From a virus: a stretch of DNA of 64,000 nucleotides. Each line of letters opens with the position of its first letter. Within the stretch, counting starts at the first letter, position 1. Below, piece after piece: positions 20,300-22,626 of the stretch. The stretch lies in IMG/VR virus record IMGVR_UViG_3300025326_000023, positions 1 through 64,000 of that record; one strand, given 5' to 3'. The translations under genes were made by a program, and so were the position numbers. Under the pieces are notes generated by a model. It had not been told where the DNA came from. It did not search any database and worked only from the letters and a program-made list of their open reading frames with translations.

Positions 20300-20458
20300 C
20301 TCGCATTGCCAAAGTTTTCACTGATCCACTGCGCCGCGCTCAGTGAAGTACTCCAGGCGGCGGCTGGTTCCCTCGCATTGCCAAACCTTTCAGTCATCCA
20401 CCGCGCCGCCACAGCGCTCATTCCTCGCCTTGCCAAACCTCTTACTTGCGACTGCGCC
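20300..20458 (-). CRISPR. Degenerate mini CRISPR array (3 repeats; 36-nt and 16-nt spacers)
   Basis: Repeats at 20300-20335 (26/36 identical to the main repeat), 20372-20407 (29/36) and 20424-20458 (35 nt), all with CTCGC...GCGCC ends. Confidence 0.8.
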
Positions 20459-21751
20459 CGCGGCGCTCGCGCTTTGTGTGCCGGGGTCCGCCTGATCCTC
20501 AGGGATCGCCTCGCCGCGTTTCCACATTTTGACGGTCACCGCGATGGACTGCCGGGCGGCGGCGTTTTTCAGGTCCTGGCAGAAGCGGGTCCAGTCCCAG
20601 GTCAGCCCGGCGGCGGCGAACCAGGAGTGTTCGCGTAGCGGCCCGCTCGGCTCGTGGTAGATCAGCGTGCCCACGTTAGCTTTCAGGCACTGCCGGACGA
20701 TATCTGCAATCATGTGCCGCAGGACTTCTTGGCGCATGTTCCGTTCCTGTTGCCGGCGGCGTCGCACGGCGGCGTCGATTTTCCGGCGGCCGTGTCCTGC
20801 GCCCATGCGATTCCGGTAGCGCCAGCCGATCTGTTTGCGCAGGCCGATCAGTCGTGCGGTCTGCGCTTTGAGATAATCGCCGTCGCCCACGAACCACTCG
20901 TCCCCGCCCGGCAGGTCCAGGCGGAAGGGCCTCTGGGCGTGCTTGGCGGCGCGGGCCTGAGCCGGGGCTGGGGGCAGCTTGCCGTTATGCTGCCCGTTGC
21001 CGTTGGGGTCCGCGCGGCGCGGCGAGTCGGCTTCTGCCTTGGCTTTTTCTGCGGCCGGGATGCGTGGCCAGAGTTCGGCCACGATCTCCGAGCGCGGGTC
21101 GGTCTCGAACGTAAACGGCACGTGCCAGAACCAGATCCCGTCGCGTTCGACCAATTTGGAGTCGGCCAGTTTGAGTTCCCCGCGGGCCAGCCGGTGCAGC
21201 AGCAGTTTGTAGCCGCTGGGCATACCGCCCAGGCAGACCTGCACCGTGAGGGCTGGGATGGCGCTGGTGGGCCGGTTGACGGTAACGGTCAGCGTGTCGG
21301 TGAAGCGGACCGTGGTATGGGCGTTGTGGAGGGGTATTTCCAGGGTGGTAAAAAAGGGCGGGCGGTCCTGGTAGTCCAGGATAGCGTGCAGTCGCCGCAG
21401 CCGGCGGCCTTCTTCGGTGGCCCCGCGGCGCCAATCCTGCTTGGCGGTCAGATTGCTCCAGAGCGCCGCGGCCAGCATGGTGCACTGGGTGGTGCCCAGT
21501 TCAGGGACGGCGGCGCGCAGGGCGTGGTAGATCTTGGTGGACTCGGACTTTTCAGAATCGGGGTCCACGTCTTTGCGTTTGACCAGCCGTTGCGACTGGC
21601 GCGGCGATTCCGGCTTGCCGCGCTGGCGCAGCAGCCAATCCTCCAGGCCAGCGTTGCGGGCTCGGCGGCAGAGTTGGCCGATGCTCGCCAGCGTGGCGCT
21701 GGTGGCCTCGTCGTCTTCGAGTTTCAGTCTCAAAACTGTGAAGGATTTCAT
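20390..21751 (-). CDS. Compact Cas12f/TnpB-like protein, predicted nuclease-dead (~453 aa)
   Basis: RBS AAGGAGG before ATG 21751; WFWHVPFTF, GHGRRK, IVRQCLKANVGTLIYHEP and WDWTRFCQDLKNAA..SIAV match the Cas12f WED/RuvC layout; no GxDxG, no CxxC finger, no RuvC-III; flanked by CRISPR arrays. Confidence 0.8.
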   Translation of the reverse strand: MKSFTVLRLKLEDDEATSATLASIGQLCRRARNAGLEDWLLRQRGKPESPRQSQRLVKRKDVDPDSEKSESTKIYHALRAAVPELGTTQCTMLAAALWSNLTAKQDWRRGATEEGRRLRRLHAILDYQDRPPFFTTLEIPLHNAHTTVRFTDTLTVTVNRPTSAIPALTVQVCLGGMPSGYKLLLHRLARGELKLADSKLVERDGIWFWHVPFTFETDPRSEIVAELWPRIPAAEKAKAEADSPRRADPNGNGQHNGKLPPAPAQARAAKHAQRPFRLDLPGGDEWFVGDGDYLKAQTARLIGLRKQIGWRYRNRMGAGHGRRKIDAAVRRRRQQERNMRQEVLRHMIADIVRQCLKANVGTLIYHEPSGPLREHSWFAAAGLTWDWTRFCQDLKNAAARQSIAVTVKMWKRGEAIPEDQADPGTQSASAAGAVASKRFGKARNERCGGAVDD

Positions 21752-21801
21752 GGGCCTGCGCCTCCTTTTTCTTCGCGCCCTTCTGGGCACGCATTACCTC
21801 G

Positions 21802-22347
21802 CTCGCATCACCAAGCCTCTTAGTCATCTATTGCGCCACATCGGCAGGGGGTGGGCCGTGACGCATAGCGACCCCTCGCATCACCAAGCCTCTTAGTCAT
21901 CTACTGCGCCACCAGTGGGGGCCCCAAGGCCCCTATCCCATTGCTGACTCGCATCACCAAGCCTCTTAGTCATCTACTGCGCCACCGAGTAGCCTCGCGG
22001 CAATCCGGCAGGACACAAACTCGCATCACCAAGCCTCTTAGTCATCTACTGCGCCGAAGTGGCACCGGTTCAGCGATTGCTGAGCCAAGCGGGCCACTCG
22101 CATCACCAAGCCTCTTAGTCATCTACTGCGCCTCTCGAATCGGCGAAACCGTATTGATGGGAAGGCCCTCGCATCACCAAGCATCTTAGTCATCTACTGC
22201 GCCGAATTGCTCCACCGACTGACTGGGTTCATGGGAGACCTCGCATCACCAAGCATCTTAGTCATCTACTGCGCCGAATTGCTCCACCGACTGACTGGGT
22301 TCATGGGAGACCTCGCATCACCAAGCATCTTAGTCATCTACTGCGCC
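21802..22347 (-). CRISPR. CRISPR array: 8 x 36-bp repeats and 7 spacers (35-41 bp)
   Basis: Repeat CTCGCATCACCAAGC(C/A)TCTTAGTCATCTACTGCGCC at 21802, 21875, 21948, 22020, 22097, 22168, 22240 and 22312; the 21802 copy has one mismatch (trailer end); the last two spacers are identical. Confidence 0.97.
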
Positions 22348-22626
22348 TGCGGCTCCCGAACTGCTTGCGCCGCAACGGCCCAGGGGGCAGCTTTCGAGCA
22401 CCCCGCGCCGTTTCGCATTACGGCGCAGTTTGGCCCGTAATCCCATCGCCGGAAGTACGTGCTCGCTGGGTAGTTGTGACACGCGAGCGGTCCCTGGGGA
22501 AACGTAGCGACGGCACTGCTCGCAGCGTACCGGCTGATCGTCCCGGACTAACTGCAGGAACCTGCGCCGGCTGCGGATCGCCACGTCGCGCCCGCAGACT
22601 TCACAGGGGCGGTTGCGCCGTTGCAT
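22330..22626 (-). CDS. Small zinc-ribbon protein
   Basis: CEVC...CEQC; reads through the leader and stops inside the first repeat. Confidence 0.4.
   Translation of the reverse strand: MQRRNRPCEVCGRDVAIRSRRRFLQLVRDDQPVRCEQCRRYVSPGTARVSQLPSEHVLPAMGLRAKLRRNAKRRGVLESCPLGRCGASSSGAAGAVDD
22348..22440 (-). promoter_or_regulatory. Putative CRISPR leader
   Basis: Minus strand GGGGTGCTCGAAAG...CGTTGCGGCGCAAGCAGTT directly before the first repeat, at the end opposite the mismatched repeat. Confidence 0.55.

Follow-up and report, generated by a model that had tools for sequence, protein, structure and literature searches.

A phage-borne, multi-spacer CRISPR module around a truncated, predicted nuclease-dead Cas12f in phages of probable Planctomycetota hosts

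The dCas12f locus and its conserved partners

The stretch of DNA analyzed here (the window: 64,000 nucleotides (nt), positions 1 to 64,000 of the IMG/VR virus record IMGVR_UViG_3300025326_000023) carries a CRISPR module around a gene for a Cas12f-like, predicted nuclease-dead protein of 453 amino acids (aa), which is called dCas12f. The record has a CheckV completeness of 63%, and the whole contig measures 73,658 bp. All positions are window coordinates unless marked otherwise, and the module lies on the minus strand. Along this strand, a gene for a small protein called X (23215-22685) is followed by an open reading frame (ORF) for a zinc-ribbon protein (22626-22330), the main CRISPR array (21802-22347), the dCas12f gene (20390-21751) and a mini-array (20300-20446), into which the dCas12f ORF runs with its 3' end.

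The main array is built of eight 36-nt repeats, with the unit GGCGCAGTAGATGACTAAGAGGCTTGGTGATGCGAG, and seven spacers of 35-41 nt. The repeats are located at 22312-22347, 22240-22275, 22168-22203, 22097-22132, 22020-22055, 21948-21983, 21875-21910 and 21802-21837, the final one bearing a G>A change. The spacers S1 (22276-22311) and S2 (22204-22239) are identical; they are the two nearest the array's 5' end, and one repeat separates them. The array is separated from the dCas12f ATG at 21751 by 50 nt, inside which an AAGGAGG ribosome-binding site can be read from the sequence (21761-21767, minus strand, 9 nt upstream of the ATG). The mini-array contains two full divergent repeats (20372-20407 and 20300-20335), one 3' half-repeat (~20423-20446) and two spacers, one of 15 nt and one of 36 nt. 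Its repeats encode the final ~20 codons of the dCas12f ORF, which are not conserved among the homologues.

A previous, sequence-only reading of this locus had described an eight-repeat array, a 50-bp gap with AAGGAGG, a ~453-aa gene and a second, divergent array, and all of these elements were found on the minus strand. It had also placed a leader before the array. No non-coding leader is present, as the DNA 5' of the first repeat is the conserved zinc-ribbon ORF (22330-22626), with its stop codon inside this repeat. The lack of cas1, cas2 and a transposase noted at the time extends beyond the window: no cas1, cas2 or Y1 transposase was found across the whole contig (cas4 was not searched for), and cas1 and cas2 were not found in the records of these phages either.

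Related loci were drawn from IMG/VR and the JGI metagenomes, and those of a distant clade from IMG/VR. The zinc-ribbon ORF accompanies dCas12f in all loci with enough flanking DNA (16/16), and X and the array are likewise present wherever the contig reaches. The four components occur together in four gene orders, also in a clade which is only ~30% identical. Most loci read X, dCas12f, zinc-ribbon, array, and the distant L039 clade has this succession with a 15-repeat array. The order is X, zinc-ribbon, array, dCas12f, mini-array in the window, X, array, dCas12f, zinc-ribbon in L002 (a 100% complete 83-kb phage) and dCas12f, X, zinc-ribbon, array in L035. Arrays of 3-15 repeats, oriented as the dCas12f gene, are found in most loci, and only L001 resembles a single-guide form. 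The survival of this linkage through rearrangement and deep divergence argues for X, the zinc-ribbon protein, dCas12f and the array being a functional unit. The effector, which the sequence-only reading had treated as standing alone, is thus seen as part of a conserved module with two partner proteins.

The zinc-ribbon protein has 98 aa in the window and ~90 aa in relatives. It contains a C4 motif (CxxC-23-CxxC), followed by a basic tail. In most relatives its gene lies directly downstream of dCas12f, and the ORF almost always terminates in the first repeat, which provides the stop codon. The four cysteines are invariant, and the codon-position pattern (0.58/0.63/0.38) is lost in the repeat-encoded tail; judged by its sequence conservation, the ORF is a real protein. 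The predicted model (predicted local distance difference test, pLDDT, 66.7) consists of a zinc ribbon and a disordered basic tail. Its position directly after the dCas12f gene raises the idea of a split-off TNB domain, the zinc-finger domain of Cas12f-type proteins. No similarity to a TNB domain was found in Pfam, in a PDB profile search or by Foldseek with this model. Long fused proteins (dCas12f plus zinc ribbon) were sought as well and not found, which counts as weak evidence.

Protein X (22685-23215; 176 aa, ~170 aa in relatives) is composed of a helical N-terminal domain and a C-terminal coiled coil. Two candidate identities were not adopted: an All3316-like protein (PDB 7b5h, E 4e-4), with an alignment limited to the coiled coil, and DUF3102, an Atlas lead with a score of 0.90 and few features in common. 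Searches in Pfam, PHROGs and the PDB gave no nuclease, helicase or other enzymatic signature for X or the zinc-ribbon protein. No sigma-70 or helix-turn-helix (HTH) match was found for them in Pfam; this applies to these two neighbours only, the rest of the contig not having been searched for sigma factors.

Fold, active site and spread of dCas12f

The 453-aa protein is scarcely detected by sequence libraries. The Pfam family OrfB_IS605 is matched with an E of 0.0034, the NCBIfam model guided_TnpB reaches 17.6 bits, where its cut-off is 100, and the top PDB sequence match is a “Nuclease-deactivated Cas12f” (E 0.044). An AlphaFold2 model, built with 31 homologues, has a pLDDT of 88.7 and a predicted template modelling score (pTM) of 0.75. 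With this model, Foldseek retrieved AsCas12f (E 9e-15) and the dCas12f structure 9n9c (2.8e-13), then OsCas12f, Un1Cas12f, TnpB and Cas12k. VIA-align ranked the solved nuclease-dead dCas12f 9n9c at the top with a Z of 21.6, matching model residues 1-408 with residues 4-365 of a chain of 365. In comparison, the match with AsCas12f (Z 19-20 over ~340 residues) reaches only ~residue 385 of ~425, and TnpB (Z ~13.8) and Cas12m (Z 10-11) score lower. According to the model, the protein has the Cas12f fold, which bears out the Cas12f-like scaffold recognized in the sequence-only reading.

Of the catalytic elements, only the glutamate of RuvC-II is left. In profile alignments, OsCas12f (E 1.5e-6) and AsCas12f (~2e-5) are matched, as is 9n9c (0.0045). 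The RuvC-I motif of OsCas12f, GVDMG, falls opposite a non-conserved stretch (L-x-P-x-x), and the RuvC-I aspartate is absent in all 31 + 10 aligned homologues, the 10 originating from the ~30%-identical clade. The OsCas12f alignment stops at chain residue 367/433, on the W..W..F..L.N....I.V helix-strand preceding the zinc finger. Because the alignment ends there, the LKNAA motif of the window's protein is, as aligned, not RuvC-III. The aligned homologues, including those of the ~30%-identical clade, all end at the same point and the RuvC-III segment is absent; the TNB domain is absent from the polypeptide as well, since the chain ends before its position.

Sequence and model together describe a dCas12f without two of the three RuvC elements and without the zinc-finger domain, and hence a predicted nuclease-dead protein. 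The lost RuvC-I and the end of similarity before the zinc finger and RuvC-III had both been noticed in the sequence-only reading; the former holds for every aligned homologue, and the profile alignment and VIA-align agree on the latter. The ~40-aa low-complexity insertion described there is present at ~residues 232-272, is peculiar to the window's protein and is modelled with low confidence. As the sequence profile is nearer to the active OsCas12f and AsCas12f than to 9n9c, the nuclease was probably lost independently of the 9n9c-type dCas12f.

Close homologues (n=57) are 37-60% identical and ~375-425 aa long, and 190 homologue clusters were collected at E <1e-3 from a library of 1.8 billion proteins. 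The Atlas clusters of the family are 64-78% viral, and a pattern scan of 185,579 GTDB species genomes found no relative of the protein. Identity at the three codon positions of dCas12f amounts to 0.53/0.62/0.35, and the pairwise ratio of nonsynonymous to synonymous substitutions (dN/dS) is 0.2-0.35, with dS near saturation. On these values, the gene is conserved under purifying selection and is not a decaying pseudogene. The latter alternative, named in the sequence-only reading itself, is contradicted also by the truncation being the same throughout the family.

Repeats, guides and their targets

Across 13 loci, the repeats agree in a consensus that is rich in purines and never varies at its 3' end (..TG[CT]GAG), and no conserved hairpin was found in them. 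Several relatives have irregular arrays of 3' half-repeats and short spacers. Such arrays are located at L031:5490-5800, L033:1040-1510, L029:340-520 and L005:7500-7620, with spacers of 11-22 nt and near-duplicate units, and handle-like copies also occur upstream of the effector gene in this group. L001 (7040-7180) has no array. A single guide is found there, with handles that resemble the repeat and a terminator hairpin, and another handle-like sequence lies just ahead of its dCas12f gene (L001:5551-5571). The half-repeat arrays and the handle/guide form of L001 indicate that the functional handle is probably the 3' ~16 nt of the repeat. The irregular arrays suggest turnover by inter-repeat recombination rather than by Cas1-Cas2.

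Two orphan repeats were observed elsewhere on the contig. The first, of full length, lies just beyond the window (L049:306-340; contig 64306-64340, minus strand) and is ~29/36 identical to the mini-array repeat. An 89-aa ORF upstream stops within it, and a 61-aa, winged-helix-looking ORF has its ATG in its 3' handle (ATGATTTGGCAATGCGAG). The second (GGCG...GGTTTGGTAATGCGAG; L049:8213-8249, contig 72213-72249, minus strand) is followed, 37 nt further on, by the ATG of a gene for a secreted, trypsin-like-looking protease, a geometry that matches the last array repeat ahead of dCas12f. An apparent anti-repeat at contig position 72209 was rejected, being an orphan repeat instead. The handle motif is expected by chance 0.4 times in the contig, and no such orphan repeats were found in the related phages G002 and G408. 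The two orphans may be cis-regulatory units resembling CRISPR RNA (crRNA).

The relatives of the window include phage genomes that are complete (100%, 83 kb) and 95% complete (37.7 kb). Upstream of the module and in the same orientation, a probable tyrosine integrase gene (24496-25407, minus strand) was recognized from its translation only; its position next to the module suggests a temperate phage context. The host phylum is indicated by two adjacent stand-alone ClpC N-domain genes (36151-37420, minus strand). Since one of these is 81% identical to a gene of a Planctomycetota metagenome-assembled genome, the phages probably infect Planctomycetota. Ten soil and sediment runs contain the phage, and the locus is essentially unchanged in the contigs of no fewer than four separate ones. 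Where the contigs of four DNA runs break, they do so inside the array, which was expected, and they gave no informative variants.

The spacers were searched against their own contig, five related phage records, INPHARED, IMG/VR (S1 seed), 401 Planctomycetota genomes taken phylum-wide and 301 genomes from the order to which the ClpC donor belongs. Among the latter, genome G430 matches S1 with 86% identity over 36 nt (31/36 by BLAST, 30/36 by a codon-by-codon count; E 2.4e-4 per genome). The match is in frame within a gene of 460 aa: the reverse complement of S1 encodes ELLHRLTGFMGD, the gene reads ELLHRLTGFMGE, and a paralogue in the same genome reads ELVHRLTGYRRA at the homologous place. The same residue is specified by 11/12 codons, and 5/6 nucleotide differences are synonymous. 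The S1 peptide reaches a BLOSUM score of 60, against a maximum of 32 among 60 shuffles.

This gene is a fusion of Prok-JAB and ThiF, with Prok-E2_E, Multi_ubiq (as separate ORFs) and DUF6527 as its neighbours, and has homologues in 4/301 genomes of the order. Bub operons are defined by a JAB-E1 fusion (BubCD), a ubiquitin-like protein with a family 6E E2, and a DUF6527 protease (BubE) (doi 10.1101/2024.11.21.623953). By its domains, the operon matched in G430 is a 6E/Bub operon of type I with BubCD and BubE. An anti-phage role of Bub has been proposed from genomic context, not demonstrated (doi 10.1101/2024.11.21.623953). From the in-frame match, we consider it quite likely that the source of S1 is a BubCD-type gene, belonging to the true host or to an element within it. 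The host or competitor targets proposed in the sequence-only reading gain one lead from this match of S1/S2 to a BubCD-type defence gene; the promoter location considered alongside is not supported, the sites being in or at the ends of coding regions.

Other matches were not retained. Those in INPHARED phages are due to chance only, and those in the 401 Planctomycetota genomes stay at chance level. The first 21 nt of S7 recur exactly, immediately before the ATG, at a gene for a large secreted planctomycete protein (L020:1501-1521; G131:C44:17586-17606); such matches occur at chance level, which leaves this one a lead at most. Spacers of L039 and L003 match several Planctomycetota genomes in unrelated genes through GC-rich low-complexity sequence, and a priA-like match of this spacer set has its Cys codons destroyed; both are considered compositional.

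In two relatives, the guides are directed at the phage's own genes. The final spacer of L039 (L039:6577-6615) recurs without mismatch over 39 nt (43 nt when the flanks are counted, E 8e-17) in the 95% complete genome that carries it. The target (L042:2451-2489; G408:C1:32950-32988) belongs to the head-morphogenesis module, in a 193-aa gene between genes read as portal and prohead protease, and GAG, the triplet on the 5' side of the target, is also how the repeat ends. The single guide of L001 matches 22/23 nt spanning the start codon of a gene read as portal (L001:7527-7549), 430 nt downstream, and this match begins only at guide position 12. All three informative guides (S1, the L039 final spacer and the L001 guide) are complementary to the coding strand, hence antisense to the mRNA, and their sites fall within coding regions or at the limits of these, not in the promoters considered in the sequence-only reading. 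These positions and strands fit simple promoter occlusion poorly, and RNA targeting and effector recruitment therefore stay live rivals.

Proposed function, alternatives and known systems

We propose that the locus is a phage-borne, adaptation-less type V module, in which a nuclease-dead, truncated Cas12f effector would perform RNA-guided binding and silencing of host or rival genes. A probability of roughly 0.6 is assigned to this reading. The genes of X, dCas12f and the zinc-ribbon protein would form one transcription unit with the array, which presumably makes up the 3' portion of the operon's transcript because the zinc-ribbon ORF ends in the first repeat with no leader between. The pre-crRNA would be cut into repeat-spacer units, with dCas12f holding the conserved 3' handle (..GGTTTGG..TGCGAG). 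The dCas12f complex, with the zinc-ribbon protein and X as probable subunits, would then bind complementary nucleic acid without RuvC cleavage, and the phage would employ this binding to silence genes of its host or of rival elements.

Because the duplicated spacer at the array start would derive from a BubCD-type gene of a presumed anti-phage Bub operon, counter-defence is the most likely role in the window's phage. A second use is suggested in the two relatives whose guides match their own portal/head region: control of late genes in lysogeny, or the exclusion of related phages. Only tentatively can both uses be united in a three-protein RNA-guided silencing machine of temperate Planctomycetota phages, acting in counter-defence against host immune operons such as Bub as well as on the phage's own late genes, and perhaps pairing with the coding strand or with mRNA.

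Several observations weigh against this proposal. The RuvC-II glutamate (E367) is >90% conserved, and X could bring an enzymatic activity. Searching the spacers, as envisaged in the sequence-only reading, gave the S1/S2 lead but no exact protospacer and no protospacer-adjacent motif (PAM) in any search; the S1 seed is unmatched in IMG/VR, and the six other spacers have no match in their own phage, the five related phages and the ~700 Planctomycetota genomes. The E of 2.4e-4 for S1 is a per-genome value across these ~700 genomes. Other GC-rich spacers give chance matches at a similar E, so that the case for S1 is the in-frame synonymous pattern of a single spacer. The gene matched by S1 is also the last on its strand, with the site ~55 codons short of that gene's 3' end, and it is not obvious that a transcriptional roadblock at this place would silence the operon. 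None of the runs listed for the locus is an RNA run. Hairpin-less repeats in other type V systems usually go with a trans-activating crRNA (tracrRNA), and RNAduplex scans of six loci and the whole contig gave no significant or syntenic tracrRNA anti-repeat.

The antisense orientation of the guides could also mean that the complex binds mRNA, as a programmable antisense regulator that blocks translation or marks transcripts for host RNases. The RNA-targeting Cas12g provides a likeness for such a system, which would have no nuclease of its own. All three guides (S1 against bubCD, L039 against the head-module gene, L001 against the portal start codon) are complementary to mRNA, a 3/3 outcome with a chance probability of 1/8. 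The match of L001 covers a translation start from 11 nt into the guide, which fits antisense action better than PAM-proximal DNA seeding, and the sites of S1 and L039 are in 3' portions of genes, the least useful place for a roadblock on DNA. However, pairing with the coding strand is a working geometry in some DNA-level CRISPR interference systems too, and the nearest solved relatives, dCas12f and Cas12f, bind double-stranded DNA; RNA targeting is considered unlikely, while deserving some weight. The strict conservation of two partner proteins and the scatter of the targets within genes, like that of ordinary CRISPR immunity, would be expected if dCas12f only found the target and X, the zinc-ribbon protein or a host factor degraded or modified the DNA, which would provide true immunity against rivals with Bub-like cargo. 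Recruitment has precedents in Cas12k with Tn7 proteins, type IV systems with DinG and dCas12f with sigma-E. It is distinctly unlikely here, as neither partner bears an enzymatic signature in Pfam, PHROGs or PDB searches, and the perfect self-match in a 95% complete phage genome would be suicidal if DNA were destroyed.

An anti-CRISPR decoy, in which the dead effector and the repeats sequester crRNA or tracrRNA belonging to a type V-F system of the host, or a host Cas12f uses the array, would be in line with a phage without adaptation genes. A phage-encoded RuvC-dead Cas9 has been proposed to act in this manner (review PMC11656645), and viral crRNA-like RNAs hijack host Cas proteins (doi 10.1101/2024.10.29.618823). 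Such a decoy is improbable given that no relative of the protein was found in the GTDB scan, and long, diverse arrays (up to 15 repeats) with two dedicated partners would be superfluous for it. Transcription activation, as by the dCas12f-sigma-E systems of Bacteroidota with X as a factor recruiting RNA polymerase, draws on the top structural match, which is a sigma-E-associated dCas12f. It appears quite improbable: the two conserved neighbours have no sigma-70 or HTH match in Pfam, the targets are antisense inside genes and not upstream of operons, and the profile is nearer to active Cas12f enzymes than to 9n9c. Least of all is a decaying relic expected, a broken Cas12f beside a dead array. 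The truncated C-terminus, the ORF entering the repeats, the low-complexity insertion, the degenerate mini-arrays and the duplicated spacer could be taken for decay, but the same architecture is kept over ~190 clusters at a dN/dS of 0.2-0.35, the AlphaFold2 model is confident, the partners are conserved and the locus persists unchanged in the separate soil and sediment runs, so that this explanation is very improbable.

The closest known relatives are the dCas12f proteins of Flagellimonas taeanensis and its kin (Hoffmann et al., Nature 2026, PMC13472631; PDB 9n9c, 9n9m), which have the truncated mini-Cas12f fold in common with the phage protein, with part of RuvC lost and an end-to-end match. 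The Flagellimonas-type protein was shown to bind DNA under RNA guidance and not to cleave it (PMC13472631). The dCas12f-sigma-E systems reside on Bacteroidota chromosomes with an operonic sigma-E (rpoE with a C-terminal domain) and an HTH protein; they mostly lack an array, use single chimeric guide RNAs and activate transcription (PMC13472631). In contrast, the phage system is phage-borne, with probable Planctomycetota hosts, multi-spacer arrays, and the zinc-ribbon protein and the coiled-coil X as its partners. An array-linked dCas12f cluster is described in Chitinophagaceae, where it targets efflux promoters (PMC13472631).

The logic of the phage system is shared with TldR proteins, some of which are carried by temperate phages and repress the host gene fliC by RNA-guided binding (doi 10.1101/2023.11.30.569447). 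TldR is derived from TnpB, has one fixed, omega-RNA-like guide aimed at a promoter, no array and none of the partners (doi 10.1101/2023.11.30.569447), whereas phage dCas12f has an array and is structurally nearer to Cas12f (Z ~20) than to TnpB (Z ~13.8). Cas12m (type V-M) and type IV systems are likewise borne by mobile elements, usually without adaptation genes, and bind or silence instead of cutting (PMC11656645). Cas12m, of ~600 aa, has a complete but cleavage-incompetent, non-canonical RuvC; phage dCas12f is smaller, is without RuvC-III and resembles it at Z 10-11 only. Type IV systems, unlike the phage module, are multi-subunit systems of class 1.

Vibrio phage ICP1 carries a type I-F system with an active nuclease, which targets PLE. 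The Cas12r locus of Thermus Lalka phages is aimed at host-resident defence or mobile elements, and its effector is an active nuclease, unlike dCas12f (doi 10.64898/2026.04.20.719267). In the case of the Cracr viral crRNA-like RNAs, phage repeat-spacer units silence host immune genes, as proposed for the phage system; they use host Cas proteins and target the promoters of cas and toxin genes (doi 10.1101/2024.10.29.618823), while the phage system supplies its own dead effector. No description of the phage dCas12f family or its partners was found in the literature searched, the coverage of which is incomplete.

Natural RNA-guided transcription factors derived from nuclease-dead Cas12f or TnpB have been recognized only recently, and those known so far either sit on chromosomes or work with one guide. 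The dCas12f family described here is distinct in being phage-borne and diverse (~190 clusters), with true multi-spacer arrays and two obligatory small partners. If the tentative reading as a counter-defence silencing machine is correct, it would represent the first phage-encoded natural CRISPR interference system against host defence genes, and Cas12f would have been exapted a second time, independently and with new partners. Confirmation of the Bub-derived spacer would tie natural CRISPR interference to viral counter-defence and lend indirect support to an anti-phage role of Bub. A predicted DNA binder of ~390 aa, with compact cofactors and presumed array processing of its own, could also serve multiplexed gene regulation.

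Some further features of the contig were observed. Its opening 20 bases are repeated directly at position 21 (window 1-40), and a longer terminal repeat was not found. A 1612-aa ORF on the plus strand (15372-20210) converges on the dCas12f gene, and L005 contains a homologue of its C-terminal part, at 38% identity. The motif TTCGTCATTGGGATTTCGTCATT and its variants recur in intergenic regions near the module, at 20228-20290, 23838-23860 and 24467-24489, and may represent an operator, a terminator or a host-type repeat.

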